Shown: one piece after another, positions 5,221-45,648 of the stretch
Layout of the letters: every line of letters starts with the position of its first letter
Position numbering within the stretch: position 1 is the first letter of the stretch
Source: a virus
Taxonomy: Duplodnaviria; Caudoviricetes
Strand: one strand, 5' to 3'
IMG/VR virus record: IMGVR_UViG_3300025934_000001
Span: 45,417-109,416 of that record
DNA: 64,000 bases
Translations under genes and position numbers: made by a program
Notes under the pieces: generated by a model
Told to the model about the DNA's origin: nothing
Seen by the model: only the letters and a program-made list of their open reading frames with translations
The model's database searches: none

Positions 5221-8200
5221 ATGGCCGGTCTGTTCGACGACGTGCTGGCCCCGGCCGCGCCGGCCTCCAAGCCGGGGCTGTTCGACGACGTCCTCAACCC
5301 CAACGCGCCCACCGCCAAGGGCGGGCTGTTCACCGACGCCAAGCCGCCAGTGCTGGAGCCGGGGGAGGAACCGCCGAAGTTCGACTTCTCGGCTCCAGTG
5401 GGCGAAGAGGGCTTCATCGGCGCCATGAAGGCGGTCCCGGGCAGCGCCGAGCGCGCGGCCAAGATAGCAATCCCGCAAATGGTGGGGCAGACCGAGCAGT
5501 GGTTCGGCAGCGGTATGGGGCTGCCCGCGCTGGAGCAGTACGGCAAGGACGTGCAGGCCCGCGCCGAGGCCCGCGCCGAGACCACCCCGAAGGAAACGCT
5601 GGTCAGCCAGCGGGCGCGCGAGGACAGCTGGACCAACACCCGCGGCTGGGTGGAGCCGGGGATCGAGAACACGGTGCGCTCGTTCGCCCCGACGGTGGCG
5701 GGCGCGGTGATTGGCGGCGTGGCCGGCTTGGTGGTCGGGGGGCCGCCGGGCGCTGCTGCGGGTGCGATAACCGGCGCCAAGTGGGGCGCAGTGGCAGGGG
5801 TGCCGCTGTGGTACGCCAGCCAGGCGCAGGAGACCCACGACAAGGTGAAGAAGGCGCAGCTGACCAAGATCGGCGGGCTGGACGAGAAGCCGCCCGGTAT
5901 GGTCACTCCCGGCAACATCGACCTCACCGACCGCCCGGTGGTGCAGAACGCGGACGGCACCATCAGCACGGTCAAGACCATCGGCGTCAACTTCGGCGGC
6001 CAGGAGACCGTGATTCCGACCGTCAGCGACGACGGCCGCATCCTCTCCAACGCCGAGGCCATCGCCCAGTTCCGCAAGACCGGCAAGCACTTCGGCCAGT
6101 TCGATAGCGTCGCGGCGGCCAACGCCTACGGCCAGGCACTGCACGTGGCGCAGCAGAAGATGTACGACCCCAAGGTGCAGGCCAAGGTGGAGGCCGACGC
6201 CAACGAGGCGGGCCACATCAGCGGCACCATCGAAGGCGCAACCGACTACGTCCTCTCCAAGATCGGGATTGGCGCGTGGACCAAGCCGCTCAAGGCGAAG
6301 CTGGCCGGGGGGGCCAGCGGGGTCGCTGTGAAGTCGCTGTTCGGGGCTCCGGTCAAGCAAGCGGTGAAGACGGTGGGCGGGGTCATCGCCAAGGAGATCC
6401 CGGTCGAACTGGGCCAGCAGGCCGGCGAATCCGCGGTCGAGGGCGCCTACGGGGCCGGGCCGGGGGCGACCTGGAAGGACACCATGAGCGTGTTCGGCCC
6501 GACGGTCGTCATGGGCCTGATCACGGGTGTCCCGGCTGCTGCCCACAACCACTACAGCCGCGGGCAGACGCAGCAGTTACTGGGCAACGGCACTGCTGAC
6601 CCGACCGACCGGAAGGGGGCGGCGCTGACCGTCGGGGCGGCGCTGAAGGAGAACCACCCCGGCGTCGCCGCTGCATTCCTGCTGTACGCCAACGACCAGA
6701 TCGCCGCCAACCAGCCGATCGCGCTGGAGAACGACGCCTTCTACCAGAACTACGCGACGACGCGGCCACCGCCCCCGCCGCCTCCTGCTGGCGGCACCGC
6801 GGCACCACCGCCTACGGGGCCGCCCCCGCCGCCTCCAGCCGGGGGTACGCCGGGCGCCACCCCTCCGCCGAACCAGCCGCCGCCAACGGGGAACCCACCC
6901 ACCCCGGGCGGCCAACCTACCCCACCCCCGACCGGAACCCAACCACCCCCCCCGACGGGGCCGGGACCCGGCACGCCTCCCCCAACGACCCCCACCGCGC
7001 CGCCCAACGCGCCGGCATCGTCGGCCGCCACCCTGCTGCAGCACGCCGCCACCCGCTGGGACGAACTCTCGCGCAAGGCCAACGGCACCCCCGACCAGAC
7101 CATCGTGGGGCCGGACGGCAAGGCGCGGGTGGTGCCCGGGCAGCAGCCGGAATACCTCACCCGCGAAGAGCTCACCGAATACCAGTTTCTGCGCTCCCAC
7201 CGCGACAACCCGGAGCAACTGGCCTCGCGCCTCGGGGTGCGCCTGCTCACGCCCGCGGAAGAGCACGCCCAGGCGCGGGTCGAGACCCAGCAGCGCACTG
7301 GAATAGACCCGGGTACGGGGGTCGTCGGCGCGGCAGCGGCGGCAGCGGTCGACAGCGGGGTCGCCGCCAATCCACTCACCGGAGGCGTCAATGCCCTACA
7401 AGAGCCGAGCGCAACAGGGGTACTTCCACACCCACCAGAAGGAACTGGAGCGCCAGGGGGTGAAGGTGGCGGAGTGGGACCAGGCCAGCAAGGGGCTGAA
7501 GTTGCCGGCCAAGGTGCGCCCGAAGCCCAAGGCCCGCAGCTGACCACGCCGGCCTACGCGACGGAGGCCGCAGCCCAGGCGAAGGCGCAATACCTGACCA
7601 CGCAGTCCGGGGTGCCGCATGAGGTGGTCGAGCATCCGGAGTCCCCCGGCGCCTTCGCGGTGCAGGAGAAGGAAGCGGAAGGAGAGCCCAGTGGTACGGA
7701 TCAAGCAGACACGGGAAGAGGCGAAGGTGAGCCGGCAGATCAAGGCCATGCAGAAACAACGGGAGAGGCAGCGCCAGCCGCAGCCCCTGCCGAAGGCGCG
7801 CCCGCCGCGGGGACGGTAACAGAAGAACCGGCGGCGGTGAGGCCGGAAACCACTGAACACCTCACCCCCGAGGATCTGCAGCCGCTGGTCGACAAGCTGA
7901 ATGAAGTCGTGGCCGCCGACCAGGCGGTGAAGGCCGCGAAGAGCGCCAAGGCGCAGAAGGAACACAAGCCGGCCATCAACACCAACGAGCAGTTGCTGCT
8001 GGCGGGGGCGCAGCGCGATCTGCGCGAGGGCAAGCCGGGGGCGCTCGACGAACTGCGCAAGATGGTGGGGATGCACCACGAGCCGGGCGACTGGATCGGC
8101 GGCACGGTGCGCAAGCAGCTGCGGGATCTGCTGATGCGGAAGGCCCCGCCGCACTGGAACTACGAGACCCTGGGCGCGATCGCGGAGGATGCCAAGAAGC

Positions 8201-11200
8201 ACAAGCGTGGCGCCACCATCCGCGAGACCCTGGACGAAGCCCGCGACATGATGGACGCGGGCGATCCCGCCGCCTACAACGCGCTCAAGAGCGCCGCCTT
8301 CCAGGCTGGCTACAACAGCGACCTCGGCAACCGCATCCTGGGGCTGATCAAGGAAGCCCACAGCCCGGAAGCGGCGGCGGAGGTGGCGGAAGCCAAGGCG
8401 GCGACGGAGCCGGTGCCCCACCTTCGTGAGAAGGAAGCGGAAGAGGAAGTCATCCCCGTCACCGAGGCGCAGGCCGAGGCCTGGCGGGAGCACTACGCCG
8501 GGATGAAATTGAGCGAGGCGAAGCCGGGCAAGCTGCCGACCATCACGCCGGTCACCCACGCCGGCAGCCAGTGGGTGGTGACCGGAGTGCAAGGCGGGAG
8601 CACGCATCCGTGGCAGCTGAAAGTGCAGGAACTGGTGCCCGACGGCTTGGGGCCCGAGTGGAAGAAGGGCCAGCCGCCGGGCTCGTTCTACGACGGCCGG
8701 CGGGTGCAGGTGCGGGGCGGCAAGACGTTTCAGATGGGCGTGCGGAAGGCGATCTTCGAAGCGCCGAGCACCCCCGAGCAGGAGAAGAAGCGGGCCGAAC
8801 TGAAGGCCCGGCGCGAAGCGGATGAGAAGGCCGAGGCGGAGCGGATCGCCGCCTATCCGCGCGACGTCGAGGGCCGCTCGCCCAACCAGGCCGGCGTGTA
8901 CCAGCCGACCGAAACGCTCGAGCTGCCGGTCACCAAGAAGAACTGGCGCGGCGTCGCGCTGGCGGAGATCAACCTGGTCGAACTGCGCGACGGCACTTGG
9001 CGCATGGGCCTGTCCTCCAACTTCAACCACGGCAGCATGACCGGCACCGGCTTCGCTCCGAGCGCCGATGGGCACAGCTTCGCCACCCGGGCGGAAGCGC
9101 TGGACGCCGCGATCGCGCGTCTACGCCGCCATGCCGAGTCGTTTGCCGCGGGCCGGGAGAACAAGGGGATGCCGGCGCAGGCCGAGGCCAACAAGGTGCT
9201 GAACTGGCTGGACGGCCTGCAGGTGCCGGGGCGGGCGAAGGCGGAGCCGACCGGCGACGCCGAGGCCGAGCGCATCGCGGGCTTGAAGACCGAGGCAGGG
9301 CAGAAGGCGATCGCGCGCTCCCGCGACAGCTTGCGCGAGAGCTTCGATCGGGCCATCGCCGCCTGGAAGCCGCGCGAGAGCTTGGGGGTCTACATCCGCG
9401 ATGACCCCAAGAAGCGCGGCTGGCTGGGGATCTTCGTCAGCGAAGGCCACGGTCCCGAGAAGATGCTCATCAGCGTCGAGCTGACCCCCGGCAGCAACGT
9501 CGCCGTCGGGCCGTGGGATCTCGGGCAGATCAGCAAGGTCTTCCACGCCTGGCTGCAGAAGCAGCCCAAGGCCGAGCGGCGCATTCCCACCCATGCCGAG
9601 CAGCAGGATCGCTCGCGCGACGAGGCCAAGCGGGCGCTGGAAGGGGCGCTCAAGAAGGCGGAAGAGGCCGGCGAGCTGTGGGAGTTGAGGGCCGGGCTGG
9701 TCGGGCTGCAGGCGCGGCTGAACAGTGGCTCTAGCAGCGCACCGCCGTACTACGCCAAGGCCGTGGCGGAGCGGATCGACAAGCTGATCGCGGCGGCGCA
9801 GAAGGATCCCGAGCGGACCTTCGATTTCTGGCTGTCGAAGGGCCTGACCCCGCGCCAGAAGCGCGACGCCGAGAAGCGCGCGGTGGCCGAGCAGAAGGCC
9901 GCCGAGCGGGCGGCGACGCTGGAGCAGCGCATCCGCAAGGCCAAGGACGACATCGCCCGCATCGAGCAGCGGGCCAGCGCCGAAGCAATGGAGAACTGGC
10001 GCGCGGCCACGCCCAACATCCGCCATACCTTCCCCACCAGCATGACGGTGGAGTCCAAGGCGGCGAAGGCGCAGTTCGAGGCCGAGGCGCTGGCCAAGCG
10101 GCAGCCCACCATCGACCAGCTGCGCAACAAGATCGAGGCGTGGGAGGTGCAGCTGGGCCTCCGCGCGGCGCCCGTGCGCGAGCCGGAAGGGCCGCAGTAC
10201 GACTTCCAGCAGACCTTCCCCGAGCCCGACGTCGAGGAAATGAATCGCGCCGGGCGCGAGGCACCGTATGCGGCGGGCGACCAGGTGGCCGCTGCTGCCT
10301 GGCACGCCGATGTGGCGGAGGAACTGCGGCGGCTGGTGAAGGCGGAGGAAGCCGACGAAACGGCCTTGCGCGGCAGCCTGCCGCCGGACAAGCGGACCAA
10401 GGTGCAGGCAGCGCTGCGCGAAACGCGCGAACTCTACAACGCCAAGATGGGCGAGTACCGCGATCTGTTCGGCGATGCGGCGCACCTGCAATTCGAGTCG
10501 CACGTGCATGGTCTGGAAGAGCCCGCCGCCAAGAAGCCGGTGACGCCGCAGGTGGAAGCGCCGCCCGGCTCCGCCCCGCTGGGGATGAAGACGCCGGAAG
10601 CGCCAGCGCCCACACCGGCGCAGCCGCAGTTCGCCAAGAACACCGTCTTCACGCAGGACGCGGTAGCGGCTGCACGCGAGCGGTCGCGCAAGAAGCTGGG
10701 CACGCTGCGCACCGGCTTCGATCCGGAGCTGTTCCAGGACTTGGTGACTATCGCCGGGGCCTACATCGAGTCCGGCGTGCGCGAGTTCGCCGCGTTCAGC
10801 AAGGCCATGATCGAAGACCTGGGCGAAGGCGTGCGGCCCTATTTGCGCACGGTTTACGATGGGTTACGCTCGTGGCCTGGGCTCGAAACCGTCGGGATGA
10901 CCCCGGCGGCCGACATCGACGCGGAGGCCGCACGTGCACACATTCAGCCAGCAGGCCCTGGTGAACCTGGGGCGGGAGCACTGGAGAGAATTCCAGCCGA
11001 AGCGTTACAAGGCACTCCAGCAGGCGGGGAAGCTGGAGCAGGAACTGCAGGCCGCGGCCAATCTGACGTTGAGCGAAATGGAGAGCAGCCGACAACTGGG
11101 GTACACGCAGGAGGAAGCGTGGGAGTTGTCCATGCAGAACCACCTGCTGGTGCCACCGGAGAAGGGCAGCCCGCAGGAGCCGCTGCCGGACAACCCGGCG

Positions 11201-14200
11201 TACACGTCCCTAGCGGAGGTCAATCGGATGCGGGACCAACCGCCCCCGGCGAGCCCTTCCCGCAAGCCCACAACTTCGTAATCACCGACGAGATCGAACT
11301 CGGCAAGGGGGGCCTGGTCCAGAAGTTCAAGGACAACGTAGCCGCCATCCGGCTGTTGAAGCAGATCGAGAGCGAGAACCGCCGCGCTACGCCGAACGAG
11401 CAGAAGATCCTGGCCAAGTACGTCGGCTGGGGTGGCCTCAAGCAGGTGTTTCCGCCGCCCGGCGGCAAGCTGGCCAAGGGCTGGGAGGCCCGGGTGGCCG
11501 AGGTGCGCGACCTGCTCACCCCGGACGAGCACGAGGCCGCGGCCCGCACCATCCTCGACGCGCACTACACCAGCCGCGAGATCGTCGAGGGCATCTGGGC
11601 CATCGCGCAGCGCCTCGGCTTCACCGGCGGTAAAGTGCTAGAACCGTCGATGGGCAGCGGCAACTTCTTCGGCCTGCTGCCGGCGGACCTGCGCAGCACC
11701 ACCTCGCTCACCGGGGTGGAGCAGGACCACATTACCGCGCGTATCGCCAAGCAGCTGTATCCGGAGGCGGCGGTGCTGGGGCCCGTGGGGTTCCAGGACA
11801 CCAACATGCGCAACGGCCACTTCAACCTGGCCGTGGGCAATCCGCCGTTCGGCCCGCAAACGCTGTTCGACGAGCACAGCCGCCACCTGCGCGGGTTCTC
11901 GCTGCACAACTACTTCTTCGCCAAGGCGATCGACAAGCTCGCCCCCAACGGCATCCTGATCCAGGTGGTGTCGCGCTACCTGATGGATGCGCAGACTTCC
12001 ACCGCGCGCGAGTACCTGGCGCACCGCACCGAACTGCTCGGGGCCATTCGCCTGCCGTGGACCGCGTTCTACGCCAACGCGAATACGGAAGTCGTTACCG
12101 ACATCGTCATCCTGCAGAAGCTGCCGAGCGACCAGTGGGGTGGCGCCGACCAGACCTGGACCCAGACCACCGAAGTGCCGGACCCGCTGGGGGGCAAGCC
12201 GATCCGGGTGAATGCCTACTTCGCCGCGCATCCGGAAATGATCCTCGGCACCATGGATCGCAGCGGCGAAATGCTGCATGAGAACGACGTCACGGTGCAG
12301 CCGCGCAAGAACGAGCCGCTGGCGGTGGGCCTGGCCAACGTCATCGCCACCCTGCCCGAGGACCGCTATACGCGCGGTAAATCAGAGGAAGAGGTGCAGC
12401 ACGAGGCCACCGCGGCGGTGAACGACGACGGCGTACCCACGGGCGACACCGGCTCCTACCACGAGGCTCACGGCTTCCTGCAGCAGGTGGTGCAGAACGC
12501 CGACGGCAGCCTGGGGCTGGTCAAGATCACCGCCGACACGCTGTGGAACGCCGACGCCAAGCCGGAGACCCGGCTCGATCCCAAGACCGGCCAGCGGGTC
12601 ACGGTGGAGCCGGCCAAATGGGGCGTGGAGCGGCTGGCGCGGGTGCGCGCCATGGTCGCCATCAAGGACACCGACCGCGAGTTGCTGCGGGCCGAGGCGA
12701 CCGACGCGCCGCTGGCGCGGCTGTCCTACCTGCGGCAGCAACTGAACGAGCAGTACGACGCCTTCGTCGCCCGCTACGGCTACCTCACCGACCAGGCCAA
12801 CGAGCGGGCCTTCCGCGCCGATCCCGACGCGCCGCTGCTGCTGGCGCTGGAGACCGACTACGACCGCGGAGTCTCGGCCGATCGCGCCAAGACCCTCGGG
12901 GTGCCCGCGCGCAAGCCATCGGCCAAGAAGATGCCGATCTTCACCCAGCGGGTGGTGCTGGCGCGGGTGGCCCCCACCACCGCCGCCAACGTGCGCGACG
13001 GCGCGGCGGTCTCGCTGAACGAGCGCGGGATGCTGGATCCGGCCTACATCGCCCAACTCACCAGCAAGACCCCCAACGCGGTGATCGCCGAGTTGACCGA
13101 CGGTGAAAAGCCGATCGCCTTTTTCGATCCGATCCAGCAGACCTACGAGCCGGCGGCGGAATACCTCTCGGGCAATGTGAAGCGCAAGTACGCCGAGGCG
13201 CTGCAGGCGGGGCTGACCAAGAACGCGGACGCGCTGCGGGCGGTGTTCCCGGCCGATCTCAAGGCCGGCGAGATCGCGGCGCGGCTGGGCTCGCCGTGGA
13301 TCGAGACCGCGGCCTACGAGGGCTTTGCGCAGCACCTGTTCGGACCCACCACCGAGGTGCGGGTGGGCTACCTGCCCGGTACCGGCGGCTTCGCGCTGGC
13401 GCTGGCCGGGGGCGACAAGGCGCTGCGCGAGACCCGCTGGGGCGTCAACCACGTGGCGCTGCTCGACGCCAACGGCCAGGAAAGCGGCGCCTTTGCCGAC
13501 GGCCGCGACGGCGACGACCTGCTCTCGCGCGTGCTCAACAACAAGGATCTCACCGTCTACCACACCGACCAGGACGGCAACCGCTACTCGCACCCGGAGG
13601 TGACGCAGGCCCTCGCTGACCGCGCCGACGAAATGCGGCAGGAATTCGAGCTGTGGATCTTCAAGGATCTGGAGCGGCGCGAGCGTCTGGTGCAGCACTA
13701 CAACGACAACTACAACACCAACGTCAAGCCGGTTTACGACGGGTCCTACCTCACCTTCCCGGGCAAGGTGCCGGACACGGTGATCCGCTTCCGCAAGCAC
13801 CAGAACGACGCGGTCGCCCGCATCATCCGCACCGGCAAGATCCTGCTCGATCACGTGGTGGGCGCGGGCAAGACCTACACCATCATCGCCGCCGCCATGG
13901 AACAGCGCCGCCTCGGCCTCAAGAACAAGCCGCTGGTGGTGGTGCCGAATCATCTGGTCAAGCAGTGGGCGTCGTCGTGGTATCGGCTGTATCCGGCAGC
14001 CAAGATCCTGGCCATGCGCAAGGAGGATTTCTCCAAGGTCAACCGGCAGCGGATGCTGGCGCGCATTGCCTCCGGCAACTGGGACGGCGTGATCTTCGGC
14101 CATTCGTCGTTCGGCTTCATGGCCAACGATCGCTCGCTGGTGCTGGCCGAAATGAGCAAGCAGGTGGAGCAGATCCAGGAGGCCATCCGCGCCGCCCGCG

Positions 14201-17200
14201 AAGTCGAGGGCGCGCGCTCGCAGACCGCCCGGCAATACCAGCGGCAGAAGGAGCGCCTCGAGCAGAAGATGCGCGAGCTGGCGTCGAAGCCGCAGGACAA
14301 GCTCTTGACCTTCCAGGAGCTGGGCGTCGACATGCTGTACCTGGACGAGTCGCAGGAATTCAAAAACCTCTTCTTCACCACCCAGCGCCGCAACGTCGGC
14401 GGCTTCGGCAACCCCACCGGCAGCAAGAAGGCCTTTGACCTGTTTATCAAGGGTCAATGGCTGCAGAACACCTACAACGGCGGCGGGCTGGCCTTCGCCA
14501 GCGGCACCCCGGTCAGCAACAGCCTGACCGAGCTCTACACCCTGCAGCGCTACCTCGGCCTCACCGAACTGGAGAACCGGGGGCTGCTCTCGCTCGACGC
14601 CTGGCTCAACACCTTCGGCGTGGTGGAGTCGGAGTACGAGTCCAACGTCACTGGCACCCGCTACAAGCGCAAGGATCGGCTGCGCCGGCTGACCAACGTG
14701 CCGGAAGCGCAGCAGATGTATCACGCCTTCGCCGACGCGGTGACGATGGACACCATCAAGGCCAACTTCCGCGCCGATCACAACGGGGCCGAGTTTCCGA
14801 TCCCCAAGGTCAAGGGCGGCAAGCCGCGGCAGAACGTGGTGGTGCCGGCCTCGTGGCTGCAGCGGTCCTACTCCGCCGGGCTGCAGCTGCGCATGGAGAG
14901 CCTGCGCCGCGGCGGTACCGACAACGCGCTGGCCATCCTCACCGACGGGCGCAAGGCGGCGCTCGACATCCGCCTGGTGGACCCGAGCGCGCCCGACAAC
15001 CCGACCGGCAAGAGCAACACCGCCGTGGGCGAGATCAAGCGCATCTACGAGGCCAATACCTACCGTAAAGGCACGCAGTTGGTGTTCCTCGATCTCTCCA
15101 TGCCCTTGAAGCAGGGCGTGAAGGCGGCCGAGGGCTACTTGAAGGAAGGGCGCGAGTTGCTGCCGCTGGGCGTTACCGTGCCCGCCGTGGGGACCATGAC
15201 CAGCCAGTGGCAGCAACTGCACGCGGCGCTGGTGGATCACCTGGAGAACCTGGACGAGGACCAGGCGCCGAACGCGATCGAGCAGCTGGAGGCCTTCCTC
15301 GCGCAGTCCACCGACATCGGCGCGGCGATGACCACGGTGGACAGCAAGTTCTCGGTCTACGACGACATGAAGGCGAAGATGATCGCCGCCGGCATTCCGG
15401 CCAACGAGATCGCCTTCATCCACGACGCCAACACCGAGCAGCAGAAGCAGGATCTATTTGATCGAGTAAATGCCGGCAGCGTGCGGGTGCTGATGGGCTC
15501 GACCATGAAGATGGGGGCCGGCACCAACGTGCAGCAGAAGGCGGTGGCGCTGCATCACATCGACGTGCCGTGGCGGCCGTCCGACATCGAGCAGCGCGAG
15601 GGCCGCGTCATCCGGCAAGGCAACGAGTTTCGCCAGGCCGATCCCAATTTCGAGGTGGAGATCCTCGCCTACGCCACCGAGGGCACCTCGGACGTCTTCT
15701 TCTGGCAGACGCAGGAGCAGAAGCTCAACGCCATCAACAGCCTTCGCAACGCTTCCGGCGAGCGCGAACTGGAGGAAGTGTCCAGCGACACCATGAGCGC
15801 GGCGGAAATGAAGGCGCTGGCCTCGGGCAATCCGCTGATCCTGGAGGACGTGAGCCTGACCGAGAAGGTGCGCAAGCTGTCCGCGCAGCAGCGCCGGTTT
15901 ACTTCCGAGCAACAGGACCTGGAATCGCAGGCAGCGCGCTACGAGCGCCAGATCGCCGGGCTGCCGGCGCTGATCGAGGAACAGAAGGACGTAGCCGCCA
16001 AGGCCGACGCCTACCACGCCGATCCGTTCGCCGGGGTAACGCGGAAGACGGTCGAGGTCGACGGCCAGCAGCTGAATGCGACCCAAGCCGGGGCGCACAT
16101 CCGCGAGGTGGCCGAAGCAGCGAAAGCGGTAGCCAAGGCCACCGACGAGCCGCGCGACGAGCGCCTGAAGACGCTGCGCGCGCAGGCGGTCGAGCTGTCT
16201 GCGCAGGGGAAAAAGAACACCCCGGAATACCAGGCGATCGAGACCGAGTTCAAGGCCCTGTTGGCGGCACCCGACACCAAGCCGGTGCTGAAGATCACGG
16301 TGGCCGGCAAGACCTACATCAACGAGAACGGCGCGGTAACCGCGGTGGAGCGCGAGGTGGGCGACATCCACGCCTTCCGCTTCGTCGGCGCCGACGGCCA
16401 CGAATACATCCGGCGGGAGGAACTGGAGGCGGCCCTCAAGCGGACCCTGGCGGCGCAAATGGGGCAGCCGGAGGCGGAGCAACTCGGCACCCTCGGCGGC
16501 CTTCCCGTGACGCTGCAGTGGACCCAGGGCCGCTACGGGGTTGGGTTCGAGGTCAGCCTCGGTACCGAGAGCCGCTTCCTGGAAGAGCGCGCCGCCACCC
16601 AGTTCATGCAGGCCGAGCGGGTCGATGGCGTGAAGGTCGTCAGCGCCATGATGCGGCTGCTGCGGGACGCGCCGGTGGTCCTGCACGAGACCCAGACGGC
16701 GCTCAAGGCGGCGCAAACCGGCCTCGCGCCGGTGCAGGCGCAGCTGGGCAAGACCTGGGGCAAGGAGGGCGAGCTGGCGGCGGCGCGGGCGCGCCTGACC
16801 GAGGTGCGGCTGCTGCTGTCCGGCGCTACGCCCACCGCGGCGGCGCCCTACGAGGGCCCCATGAGCTATCGCGGGGTGCAGATCGCCGGCCCCTATCAGG
16901 TGCCGCCCGGTGGAATGCGCTACTCCCTCGGCGGGGCCGCCGGCCAGTCGCTGAATACCAAGGCGGCGGTGGAGGCGGCGATCGCGGCGGTGGTGGCGAA
17001 GTGGCGCAACGCGCCGCGGCTGACTGTGGTGCAGTCGGTGGCGGAACTGCCGCCCTCCCCCGACGGCAAGCCGTACCCGCTGACCCTGCGCGGCGTCTAC
17101 TTCGGCGGCCACGTGTTCCTGGTGGCCGACAACATCCTGCCGGGGCGGGAGCAGTTCGTGGCCTCGCACGAGGCGCTGGGCCACTTTGGGCTGCAAGGCT

Positions 17201-20200
17201 TGCTGGGCGATCAACTGCAGCCGCTGATGGAGCAGATCTACCGCAGCAACCCGAAGGCCAAGGCGGCGGTCGATCGCATGATCGCCGAGGTCAAGGCCAA
17301 GTATCCGGGGCTGCATTACGACATCGCGCGGGCGACCGAGGAATACCTGGCGGATTTGGCCGAGGCCGGGCGGCTGACCGAGGTCAAGGGCTGGCGGCTG
17401 CTGGTGGCGGCGATCCGCAAGGCCTTGCGCGCGATCGGCTTCACCGTCGAGTTCTCCGACAACGACATCGTGGCGCTGCTGGCGAATGCCCGCCGCTACG
17501 TCGAGCAGGGGGCGCGGCAGCCGCAGGTGCAGGGCCAGTTGGAGCCGGCGCTGTCGACCACGGGCCAGGCGGCCCCGCTGTGGTATTCGGCGCTGGCCGA
17601 GGCGGTGGCAGGGGCGAAGCAGACGCTGGCGCCTTCCGCCATGTGGCAGGGGCTTCTCAAAAACCTGCCCGGGGTGAAGAAGGAAGAGGTGGAGTGGTCG
17701 GGCCTGCGCGAGTGGCTGCAGCTGCAGCAGGGCAAGGTGAGCAAGGACGAGATCATGGCCTTCCTCAAGGCCAACGGGGTGCAGGTGGAAGAGCGGGTGT
17801 ATGGAGCGCCAGAGGCGGGCGGGCCGGCGCTGCAGGAGGAACGCGAAACGCTGGAAGAGGAACTGGGGCGGCACGGCTTCCAGGTGGGCTATACGCAGAG
17901 CGGGCGCCTCGACACCCTCACCCGCGACGACCAGACCTGGGCGCAGAACCACGACAACGACAACTGGGTGGCGCTGGATCCGGCGACCGGCGATGTGATG
18001 GAGAACGGGCCGTCGCTGCCGGCCGACGCCGAAATGGCGGCCATGGCCCTGCAGCGCGTCACCGATCCCGGCTATGAGCCGGGGCAGCTGCGCGCCGCCC
18101 AGTTCAGTGGCTGGAAGCCGGTGAAGCAGGGCGGCCAGAACTACCGCGAACTGGTGCTGACCCTGCCGTTGCACCAGCCGTCACTGGCGCTGGACGTGTT
18201 CAAGGCCAAGCTGGCGGCGAAGTACGGCATCGAGGGGGACGAGGACAGCCCCGCCAGCGGCCTCATGTCACAGGCCGATCGCTTCGAGCTGCAGCGGCTG
18301 CAGGCCGAGGCCAGGAAGCAGGAGGCCCGCAACTACAAGGGCGGCCACTTCAAGGCCTCGCCCAACTCACTCCTGCATATCCGCTTCGACGAGCGCACCG
18401 ACGCCGAGGGCAAGCGGGTGCTGTTCATCCAGGAGCTGCAGTCGGACTGGGGGCAGAAGGGCGGCCAGTTCGGGTTTGCCGACGATCGCGCCGAACAAGC
18501 CATGGCGGCGTATGAGGCCCGCCGCAATGCGCTGCAGGCGCGCTACGACGACCTGGTGGCGCAGTGGAACGCGGTCCCCTTCGGCGGGGTGGGCATCACC
18601 ACGGAGGTGCGGCAGCAGCGCAACGAGCAGCGCGCGGCACTGATGGATCAGCGTTCCGCCGCGCACCGGGACCTGATGGCGCTGTACCAGGAGCGCCCCC
18701 CGACCCGCAGCCACTACAGCACCATCCCGGCCGCCCCCTTCGTGGCCAAGCGCGAGTACGCGGTGTTCACCAAGAACGCGGAGGGGGTGGAAGAGGAAGT
18801 CACCCGCACCCTCAAGACCGAGGGCAAGGAGGACCAGCAGGTTGCGCAGCGCTACGGCACGCTGGAAGAGGCGCAGGCCGCCGCCAAGAAAGTGGAGGGC
18901 GGCGAGGCGCGCGACGTCGGCTACGGCGAGAACACGCCGGCGTGGGTGGGGCTGGGGCTGAAGCGGATCATCCGCTGGGCCGCCGATCACGGTTTCGACC
19001 GCATCGCCTGGGCCACCGGCGACCAGCAGGTGGCGGCCTACCCGGGGCTGGAGAAGCACATCGACAAGTTGGACGTCACCGCCGAGCCGCGCACCTATGG
19101 CGGCAAGATCTGGCGCGTCAAGGGGCTGAATCCGGCCGGCGAGGACGTGGTCCACATCACCGCCTACGACGAGAAGCAACTGCAGAAGGCGATCGGCAAG
19201 GAACTGGCCGCGCGCGTTCTCCGCGACACCGCCCACGCTGCCACTGCCAACTACCGCAACCTCGACACCAAGATCGGCGGCGAGGGGATGCGCACCTACT
19301 ACGACCGGGTGCTCCCCAACATCGCCAACGATGTGTTGAAGAAGCTGGGCGGCGAGCGGGTGCGGGCGCTCACCGGGGTGATCGACCCCAAGACCGCCAC
19401 CTATGACGGGCCGGTGGGCCAGGACTTGCTGAACCAGTTGCGCGACATCGTCCGCGGCGGGCACCCGAGCCAGGTGGGGCAGACCGAGGCACAGATCGCG
19501 CCGGTGCGGGCGGCGGCGCGGGCGGTGCAGACCGCCTACTACGGCACCGCCAGCACCCGCGAGGCGATGGAGGCCCACGCCACCCCGGAACTGCTGGCGG
19601 CGGTGGGCGGCACCCTCACCAAGGCGGATCCCAGCGGACTCCAGCCCGGCTTCGACGTCACCCCGGCGCTGCGGGCGAAGGCGCTACAGGGAATGCCGAT
19701 GTTCTCCCTGGCGCAGCAGGCCACGGCGGCCTTCCGCCGCTGGTTCGGCAACAGCCAGGTGGTGACCGACCGCGGCGCTCCCATGCGGGTGTTCCACGCC
19801 ACCAGCGCCACCCGCGACTACGTCATCTTCCGCCGCTTCGCCCACTTCGGCACGGTGGAGCAGGCCAACTTCCGCAGCGCCTACGAGCCGCTGGTGCTGC
19901 CCTACCAGAACCGGCAGGCGCAAGGGCCCAAGCGCACCATCCCGGTGTACCTGTCGATCCAGAACGCGCTCAAGATCGACGACACCGGCGAGCAGCACGA
20001 CGTGCAGTTGCTGACCGACCTGGCCCGCGACGCGGGCGGCATCAGCGACGAGCAGTGGCTGTGGATCCGCGGCCGCTCGCTCGACCGCCAGCTCGAGCGG
20101 CTGTCGGAGCGCGATCGCGGCGACCGCCTGATCGCGGCGCTGAAGAAAAACGGCTTCGACGGCTTCTACTACGAGAACGACGTCGAGGGCAGCGGCCTCT

Positions 20201-45030: not shown

Positions 45031-45648
45031 ATGATGGGGCAGGCCGCCCCGAACTACTCGCAGATGGCGAGCTTCGCGCAGCCGCAGGGCGGGGGCTCAC
45101 CTTATGGCCCGATGCAGGGCTACAGCATGCCGGGTGGCGGTTACCAGCAGCAGCAAGGCATGCAGGGCTCACCCTACGGCCCGATGCGAGGGCAGAGCAT
45201 GCCCGGTGGCGGATTCTCGCAGGCGCAGGGCGGCGGCTGGGGCGGGGGCCGCATGCAGCAGGCCATGCCACCGTGGATGCAGCAACAGATGCAGCAACCG
45301 CAGGCGGCAACGGCCGCGGCGGCGGCTCCCGATGCAGCGGTTCCCGATGCAGCGGCTGCGCAGGCCGGCTTGGCAGGGGGCAGCACCACACCCGTCGGTA
45401 GCGAGGCCGTGCCCCTGCCGCAAGCGCAGGCACCGATCGGCATGCGCCCGATGGGCGGCGCCATGTACCAGCGCGGCGGCTACGGCGGCGGCTACGGCGG
45501 CGGCTACGGCGGCGGCTACGGCGGCGGCTACGGTGGCGGCTACGGTGGTGGACGTGGCGGCGGCTGGGGTGGTGGCTGGGGTGGTGGGGGCGGTTGGGGC
45601 GGCCCCATGCAGCGACAGATGATGCAGGCGCAGGCACTGCGCCGTTAA
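45031..45648 (+). CDS. G/Q/M/Y-rich low-complexity protein
   Basis: In the operon frame; GGYG x6, GGW, Q/M-rich. Confidence 0.6.
   Translation: MMGQAAPNYSQMASFAQPQGGGSPYGPMQGYSMPGGGYQQQQGMQGSPYGPMRGQSMPGGGFSQAQGGGWGGGRMQQAMPPWMQQQMQQPQAATAAAAAPDAAVPDAAAAQAGLAGGSTTPVGSEAVPLPQAQAPIGMRPMGGAMYQRGGYGGGYGGGYGGGYGGGYGGGYGGGRGGGWGGGWGGGGGWGGPMQRQMMQAQALRR
45475..45546 (+). repeat. 12-bp tandem repeat x6 (GGCGGCTACGGY)
   Basis: Counted directly; encodes GGYG. Confidence 0.9.

Follow-up and report, generated by a model that had tools for sequence, protein, structure and literature searches.

Three probable small genes nested in a giant DarB-like gene

A giant gene in a soil phage genome contains three small open reading frames (ORFs), here called ORF1, ORF2 and ORF3, which are located completely inside it, on the same strand and in its +1 frame. 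It was found in a DNA stretch of 64,000 nt (positions 45,417 to 109,416 of the IMG/VR record IMGVR_UViG_3300025934_000001), which is referred to as the window. We consider it probable that the nested ORFs are independently translated genes, and that the corresponding linkers of the giant protein arise by reading through them. For the ORF1 and ORF3 families, the sequence comparisons presented below indicate conserved and selected protein genes with translation signals of their own, across which the frame of the surrounding giant gene (the host frame, frame 0) is kept open.

The first-pass annotation of the window had already placed the three ORFs in one common frame. The coordinates agree with this: the starts of ORF1, ORF2 and ORF3 are 2 mod 3 and that of the giant ORF is 1 mod 3, which puts all three in +1. 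Each of them has its own start codon, preceded at a distance of 5 or 6 nt by a well-spaced Shine-Dalgarno (SD) sequence, GGAGG or AAGGAG (Table 1). Lying out of frame within a larger ORF of the same strand and being equipped with a start and a ribosome-binding site, the three ORFs have the features of embedded genes.

The codon bias follows the same boundaries. In the host-only segments of the giant ORF, the GC content at third codon positions (GC3) of frame 0 is 0.86-0.94. Within ORF1 it is 0.43 in frame 0 and 0.92 in frame +1; the corresponding values are 0.47 and 0.84 for ORF2, and 0.44 and 0.84 for ORF3. This switch into the nested frame, which the first-pass annotation had claimed and which was now seen in a per-frame scan, is sharp, coincides with the boundaries of the ORFs and occurs at exactly three places. 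Between ORF1 and ORF2 the bias returns to the host frame (Table 1); for this intervening segment no homologue was found by tblastn. When translated in the host frame, the overlaps yield the low-complexity sequence rich in G, A, E, P and Q that had been described for them, with A-ending codons, which do not suit a genomic GC3 of 0.9. An apparent +2 bias at 6751-7050 (+) was rejected as a sign of a nested gene, because it is an artefact of a proline-rich host linker: in its CCN codons, a C occupies position 2 of the host frame and thereby position 3 of the +2 frame.

Other long ORFs overlap the giant gene in alternative or antisense frames (12382-15423 on the minus strand, 15454-18174 on the minus strand and 15570-18077 on the plus strand; 835-1,013 aa). 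None of them gave a coding signal in the codon-bias scan, which covered the +1 and +2 frames and not the antisense frames by themselves. Like the numerous other long ORFs in alternative frames of the window, they were taken as high-GC artefacts.

Table 1. Coordinates of the giant gene, of its nested ORFs and of related features (window positions unless stated otherwise)
Feature	Position	Strand	Remarks
Giant host ORF	5221-22950	+	one open frame, 5,909 codons; predicted DarB-like polyvalent virion protein
SD of ORF1, GGAGG	7381-7385	+	5 nt 5' of ATG
Nested ORF1	7391-7543	+ (frame +1)	50-aa basic protein, MPYKS family
Host-frame segment separating ORF1 and ORF2, 147 nt	7544-7690	+	frame-0 GC3 back to 0.86; two +1 stops
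SD of ORF2, AAGGAG	7679-7684	+	6 nt 5' of GTG
Nested ORF2	7691-7819	+ (frame +1)	42 aa, very basic, orphan candidate gene
Conserved host-frame helical domain, precedes ORF3 in aligned relatives	10558-10932	+	alignment A4, 41 loci
SD of ORF3, GGAGG	10923-10927	+	6 nt 5' of GTG
Nested ORF3	10934-11281	+ (frame +1)	115-aa TnpV-like protein
Start of host-frame methylase module, NF.ITD..LG.GG ... GWGG	11263-12162	+	alignment A5, 59% mean column identity; PHROG matches
DPPSPFDTLQ.W family (relatives)	~14450-14810 in L009-L020, L031, L032		~6.5 kb 3' of the TnpV-like ORF

Homologues of ORF3 are nested in giant genes of many phages

The ORF3 translation has matches inside of giant genes in phages of Agrobacterium, Sinorhizobium, Vibrio, Klebsiella, Pseudomonas, Ochrobactrum and Microcystis. 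In six GenBank/RefSeq phages (Atu_ph08, VvAW1, SopranoGao, POI1126, Mwe-JY07 and Pavtok), the homologue is located in the +1 frame of an annotated giant coding sequence (CDS), and no internal gene is annotated in any of these CDSs. A profile scan of IMG/VR extended the arrangement to more loci: the ORF3 homologue lies in +1 within an ORF of 1,100-5,000 codons in 61 of 62 loci, at GC contents of 0.49-0.69, and in the same proportion (61/62) the parts upstream and downstream of the nested ORF share one frame. The third frame is closed over the homologues in the IMG/VR loci. At 70% identity, the homologues fall into 23 clusters.

The translation signals are conserved together with the frame. In the ORF3 family, amino acid conservation begins exactly at the start codon, and the sequence upstream of it is not conserved. 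The start codon, usually ATG and in a few loci GTG, is positioned 12 codons 5' of an invariant HW motif in most loci and 9-17 codons in the rest. An SD-like 4-mer is present at -17 to -4 in 56 of the 57 unique homologous loci, compared to a background of 11.8% elsewhere in the same genes. The first-pass annotation had proposed the conservation of +1 ORFs and SDs in homologous giant genes as a check, and its outcome is in favor of nested genes.

These data also bear on the possibility that a programmed +1 frameshift takes place just before the module, resulting in a shorter protein which ends in the TnpV-like domain, or in the MPYKS domain of the ORF1 family described below. Such a mechanism would fit the fact that nesting is always in +1, and also PHROG 938, a profile of 2,185 positions that holds the upstream part and the module consecutively. 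It would further fit the record of Sinorhizobium phage PBC5 (L002/L037; ~11940-12300 in L002), in which the annotation divides the giant gene into two parts, and the 2,100 aa of the upstream part and the TnpV-like module form one frame, gp22, which ends at the stop of the module. However, a single frame change, just after the common motif GMSSAAEVE, separates PBC5 from its close relative Atu_ph08; the change may be a sequencing error in this record, first deposited as AF448724, or a real variant. The methylase-helicase frame of PBC5 is open from ~270 nt 5' of the nested start. In several other loci (L003, L004, L046-L048, L058, L066 and L067) a +1 stop is found only 2-6 codons 5' of the conserved start, which leaves almost no room for frameshift entry. 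Further arguments against a frameshift are that conservation starts exactly at the SD-preceded ATG or GTG, that the family members found in protein libraries are small and match from residue 1, and that MPYKS copies are mostly stand-alone genes. Conservation across the junction was not found, and no slippery run was seen in an inspection by eye without a formal scan. Altogether, we regard the frameshift as quite improbable.

A related observation was made in Pseudomonas phage Itty13 (L005, NC_070969.1), where a giant DarB-like ORF of at least 4,112 codons at 6969-19305 (+) is not annotated. It carries a nested TnpV-like ORF at 11983-12306. The record lists three opposite-strand CDSs for hypothetical proteins instead, which are probably high-GC antisense artefacts.

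In the ORF3 family, the nested frame is under protein-level selection

The selection figures given here are valid at the family level and were obtained from relatives; the window's own copies of ORF1, ORF2 and ORF3 are outside them. In the ORF3 family, the ratio of nonsynonymous to synonymous substitution rates (dN/dS) amounts to 0.24 for the nested frame, as against 1.69 for the host frame (76 aligned codons, 208 pairs), and the nested value is below the host value in 203 of the 208 pairs. The per-frame comparison suggested by the first-pass annotation thus speaks for the nested gene. Over the overlap, the least variable position is position 3 of the host codon, which is the reverse of the situation in a singly coding host gene.

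At the same time, the host frame is never interrupted over the ORF3 homologues. To quantify this, the synonymous codons of each nested protein were resampled from the codon usage of the respective genome, giving the probability of an open host frame, P(open). Its median is 0.018, and for six of the eight loci with the lowest GC content the host frame was open in 0 of 2000 resamples. As judged from these values, selection maintains both frames in the ORF3 family, although in different ways: the nested frame bears the protein constraint, while the host frame appears to be selected only to stay open, as is expected of a linker. In the lower-GC relatives, the resampling indicates that it stays open only via synonymous codon choice.

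ORF1 belongs to a family of small phage proteins, while ORF2 is an orphan

A search with ORF1 retrieved 26 small proteins, namely the window's own sequence and 25 relatives of 43-81 aa with 53-82% identity. The family is characterized by an invariant N-terminal MPYKS, followed by the motif E-W/F-D-x-A-S/T-K-G-x-K-L-P and a basic tail, and was named the MPYKS family. ORF1 agrees with the family alignment (A2) at every invariant or nearly invariant column and is a member of the family. No match to ORF1 or to the family was found in Pfam or PHROGs. A relationship to DUF3008 (PF11450) was suggested only by an Atlas lead (0.88, with DUF3008 on 15% of that cluster), and none of the 26 proteins matches DUF3008 at E<=1.

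At least 362 MPYKS relatives are present in viral contigs. Among the 63 copies that could be placed in IMG/VR loci, 48 are stand-alone genes and 15 are nested, and all 15 are in +1 and none in +2. Their hosts are ORFs of 427-4,050 codons on contigs with 31-56% GC, for which P(open) is at most 0.008. The would-be host frame contains on average 5.1 stops across the stand-alone copies and 0 across the nested ones. These hosts are polyvalent proteins of other kinds and contain LPD1, ddrB-ParB, sigma-70, GGACT and Zeta-toxin domains. Of 41 stand-alone copies, 11 directly follow an ORF with a length of 800 aa or more, and the family accompanies giant genes in three ways, being located behind, ahead of or within them. 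A three-gene arrangement recurs in aquatic viral contigs of low GC content (L079, L082, L099, L100, L114, L116 and others, at ~6001-6165), in which a stand-alone MPYKS gene follows an ORF of 1,000-2,000 or more aa and precedes an ORF of 173-179 aa.

ORF2 has no counterpart in Pfam or PHROGs. A longer, mechanically called ORF at 7619-7819 has an ATG further upstream, in a region where the codon bias is that of frame 0. A possible origin of ORF2 as a detached tail of longer MPYKS proteins (P0003, P0009) was not supported by BLASTP, and this idea was dropped. Based on the codon-bias switch and the SD, ORF2 is a candidate that is probably a gene. The proposal of the first-pass annotation that the linkers are by-products of overprinted genes is therefore strengthened by homologues and selection for ORF1 and ORF3, and it does not gain such support for ORF2, which has no homologue.

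ORF3 is predicted to encode a TnpV-like helical protein

An AlphaFold (AF2) model of ORF3, computed with 45 relatives, consists of a four-helix core (residues 1-75) followed by a disordered tail. The predicted local distance difference test (pLDDT) score is above 90 over residues 1-70. With this model, Foldseek found no match in the PDB and only the PBC5 protein in BFVD. When 1.84 billion representative proteins were searched with a profile, 1,390 members of the family were found; among the best 150 of them, nearly all are proteins of 73-185 aa which match from residues 1-10, and there is no giant protein.

The similarity to TnpV (PF14198) is weak. Weak Pfam TnpV matches were obtained for 28 of the 45 relatives, the best with 8.8e-5, while ORF3 of the window has no Pfam match at E<=0.01 and does not reach the PF14198 gathering score. 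An Atlas lead pointed to TnpV on 13% of a nearby cluster. The ORF3 family resembles TnpV in size, in its helical nature and in the common motif HW..-P..Y..L...G.L, but its context is a giant phage gene and that of TnpV is a transposon. On these sequence grounds we call ORF3 TnpV-like and do not file it as a TnpV member.

One may ask whether the nested ORFs are relics, that is, small genes which were captured by fusion, are no longer expressed, and persist merely as linker-coding sequence. That the host frame reads through the small genes, that ORF2 is an orphan and that ORF3 of the window is divergent and starts with GTG would be compatible with this. However, in dead genes the frame, the start, the SD and the codon bias would be lost. 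What is observed is the low dN/dS of the nested frame over 208 pairs and the retention of starts and SDs in 56 of 57 loci; ORF1 retains every invariant residue, ORF3 gives a model with pLDDT above 90, and the linkers keep their A-ending host codons despite a genomic GC3 of 0.9. We therefore judge it improbable that the nested ORFs are relics, and prefer the view that they are active genes.

The host gene is a DarB-like polyvalent gene

The window originates from a soil phage genome of ~68% GC in which terminase, portal and major head genes are present. The giant ORF is located directly 3' of the virion structural genes. It has Pfam matches to Eco57I methyltransferase (MTase), ResIII, Helicase_C and SNF2, and is matched by PHROG 10089 ("DarB-like antirestriction", E=0) and by PHROG 11801. 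According to these matches, an adenine MTase is fused to a helicase of the superfamily 2 (SF2)/SNF2-like type, and by this domain composition the giant ORF is a DarB-like methylase-helicase polyvalent gene. It is related to the giant virion genes that are found in Bcep22-like and allied podophages. For one of them, the giant DarB-like protein gp69 of JC1, detection in virions by mass spectrometry is described in a passage that gives no peptide map (PMC9144972). From this precedent and from the position of the gene, the giant protein of the window is predicted to be packaged into the virion.

ORF3 is situated between two conserved host-frame regions (Table 1). The helical domain preceding it matches positions 1945-2068 of the PHROG 938 profile and positions 1077-1347 of PHROG 10089. 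On the other side, the stop codon of ORF3 falls within the first codons of the methylase module in the window, and in some relatives ~180 additional host codons separate the nested stop from this module. Downstream, a +1 fragment at 11642-11956 matches 12 VvAW1-like loci and is also in +1 in the one locus that was checked (E 9e-9). It was rejected as a nested gene, with a frame-0 GC3 of 0.92 in this strongly conserved methylase region, and the matches are probably a by-product of nucleotide conservation in the methylase.

The same region is informative with respect to the question of whether the giant ORF could correspond to two or three large genes with ordinary small genes between them, the open host frame over the small genes being untranslated. 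The annotation of the PBC5 giant gene in two parts and the eleven stand-alone MPYKS genes just 3' of large ORFs could be read in this way. But the host-frame module after ORF3 has no nearby start codon, the parts upstream and downstream share one frame in 61 of 62 loci, and in lower-GC relatives synonymous codon choice keeps the host frame open. Also, a giant DarB-like protein was detected in JC1 virions, as described in the above-mentioned passage without a peptide map. A split into several genes is thus very unlikely in comparison to one continuous giant gene with nested small genes.

Chance, assembly and arguments against nested genes

In DNA with 68% GC, spurious long ORFs are numerous, one of them with 1,013 aa on the minus strand, and nested ORFs could arise by chance. 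Alternatively, compensating indel errors could hide domains which are in frame in reality. The latter was excluded at the assembly level: contigs from independent soil and rhizosphere assemblies (2017-2025) are identical to the window across 7000-7498, 7481-7912, 10721-10972 and 10988-11582, without frame-changing indel. The sole indel nearby, found in contigs of two soil metagenome runs, is a frame-neutral 3-nt deletion at 10904, just 5' of the SD of ORF3. Chance, on the other hand, is difficult to reconcile with the homologues of ORF1 and ORF3, with a codon-bias switch that is bounded by the ORFs, and with the same arrangement in 61 loci down to 49% GC. For ORF1 and ORF3 the artefact explanation is already refuted, and as an account of the whole it is hardly credible.

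Several observations nevertheless weigh against the interpretation as nested genes. In the window taken by itself, an open host frame over ORF1, ORF2 and ORF3 is expected by chance, with P = 0.70, 0.77 and 0.40, respectively. Since openness is unremarkable in such a GC-rich window and spurious long ORFs are abundant, the case rests on the codon bias and on the comparison with other genomes. No close relative of this phage was found by blastn of 6900-8300, by single-protein scans of viral and metagenome contigs, or by tblastn of ORF1 and ORF2 against GenBank phages. ORF3 of the window is the most divergent member of its family, forming a separate lineage with 26-51% identity; its GTG start is at -15, 3 codons 5' of the family position, and L replaces the near-invariant W9. 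For ORF2, tblastn against GenBank phages and a further homologue search retrieved nothing except ORF2 itself. The ORF3-family loci are not phylogenetically independent, and the sole exception among the 62, the PBC5 record, has the TnpV-like module fused in frame to the upstream part. Finally, the structure search by Foldseek was uninformative on the function of ORF3. With these points taken into account, frameshift, relics, artefact and several genes appear unlikely even when added together, and independent translation of the nested ORFs remains our preferred explanation.

Nesting in the +1 frame is general in the giant genes

To find out how common nested genes are, 36 high-GC relatives were scanned for GC3 in the alternative frames. 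The scan gave 72 coding signals in +1 and none elsewhere, apart from 15 "+2" signals which all lie within +1 segments, so that there is no independent +2 segment. Several of the flagged +1 segments translate to R/P/S-rich junk and were not counted as genes. Beyond the TnpV-like family, at least three further recurrent families are nested in giant genes. One of them, with proteins of 58-76 aa and the motif DPPSPFDTLQ.W...LKQAR, is nested in +1 in 11 relatives and is absent from the window (for its position see Table 1). In Bcep22 gp75 (L150), a +1 ORF at 1778-2188 (MTETQLLELL...) occupies the place equivalent to that of the TnpV-like gene, with GC3 values of 0.9 in the nested and 0.4 in the host frame. 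An extra +1 ORF was also seen in Pavtok (L151) at 3-182, which by eye is similar to L048 6312-6530.

The genetic code offers an explanation for the preference for +1. In this geometry, a host codon consists of position 3 of one nested codon and positions 1 and 2 of the next one, and host stops would therefore appear as T|AA, T|AG or T|GA. Each of them can be removed by changing NNT to NNC in the nested gene, which is always synonymous, and staying open would thus cost the nested protein nothing. If the overlap were in the other frame, an unavoidable TGA would result wherever a Met codon precedes a codon beginning with A, and the conserved "MN" start of the TnpV-like proteins would give exactly that.

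Proposed origin and role of the nested genes

Based on these observations, we propose the following model. Ribosomes which start at the ATG of the giant gene would read the overlaps in frame 0 and produce disordered linkers, rich in G, A, E, P and Q, between folded domains. Other ribosomes would initiate at the internal SDs of the giant mRNA and synthesize the small proteins, which would be the 50-aa MPYKS protein from ORF1, the 115-aa TnpV-like helical protein from ORF3 and, probably, the 42-aa basic peptide from ORF2.

As regards the origin, both families exist mainly as small proteins starting at their own Met, which points to the host-frame linker as the derived reading. The small-gene families would accordingly be older than the overlap, and the giant gene most likely grew through adjoining or intervening small genes. 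The first-pass annotation had offered growth through formerly separate genes as one of its two explanations, and the data fit it: 48 of 63 MPYKS copies stand alone and the TnpV-like members are small, with the addition that the small genes are still kept.

It is tempting to speculate that the small proteins serve the giant one, for example in folding, in capsid loading or in the control of the methylase-helicase. Phage P1 needs Hdf, DarA and DdrA alongside DarB, as stated in a passage of PMC9144972 citing Piya 2017, and the proposed helper role of the nested products would resemble that of these proteins. Going further, polyvalent giants in general might grow by capturing neighboring small genes, which would be read through in the one frame where synonymous changes (NNT to NNC) are sufficient to remove all stops; the captives would stay active as partners encoded in cis, with their synthesis tied to the ribosome traffic on the giant mRNA, and nested +1 genes would form a general, unannotated layer in many phage families. 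We offer this broader view tentatively, as a possibility on which considerable doubt remains.

The nested genes are of importance for several reasons. Annotation pipelines miss them, as the first-pass annotation had anticipated: they are not listed in the records of the six phages named above nor in that of Bcep22. In this way, at least four recurrent families of small proteins are hidden in the largest genes of phages that are common in soil, plants, the gut and water. Reading through small genes in a synonymously openable frame would be a route by which polyvalent proteins become longer, and would explain why some polyvalent linkers are disordered and have odd codons. The nested products are also candidate partners of DarB-like anti-restriction proteins, for the capsid loading of which helpers are needed in phage P1. 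Last but not least, the overlaps are a clean natural case of dual coding, in which one frame is constrained in its amino acids, the only constraint on the other being that it stays open.

Comparison with known systems

Fully embedded genes in the +1 frame are known in phages, and Rz1, which lies wholly inside Rz in the lambdoid spanins, is the standard case. According to a passage in PMC9144972, embedded Rz/Rz1 genes are present in Bcep22-like phages, too. The arrangement described here is similar in that a larger phage gene completely encloses a small one, which is in the +1 frame and has its own start. However, both products of Rz/Rz1 are needed and are functionally linked, while for the pairs of giant and nested genes we infer such a link. 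Furthermore, the host gene here encodes a polyvalent virion protein of 4,000-6,000 aa with several unrelated nested genes, the nested families also occur as free-standing genes, and the host-frame reading is only a disordered linker.

The host gene itself resembles the polyvalent and DarB-like proteins described previously (Iyer et al. 2017, PMC5512222; Bcep22 gp75, JC1 gp69) in its dyad of MTase and SF2 helicase, in being a giant multidomain gene and in its place in the virion module. The survey of polyvalent proteins in PMC5512222 contains no mention of frameshift, overlapping, TnpV or DUF3008, and our literature searches, with the founding Bcep22 paper (Gill 2011) outside their coverage, revealed no report of nested genes in giant polyvalent genes. 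What appears to be new is the type of host gene, the number of nested genes, and the conservation of this unannotated arrangement over many phage lineages.

New, too, is the direction of evolution, with older small genes inside of a giant one. As in the overprinted genes of small viruses (PMC8227390), both frames code, one for an ordered and conserved product and the other for a disordered one. In classical overprinting, however, a new protein arises inside an old gene, whereas here the nested genes would be old, and the linker of the host protein would be new and nearly unconstrained.

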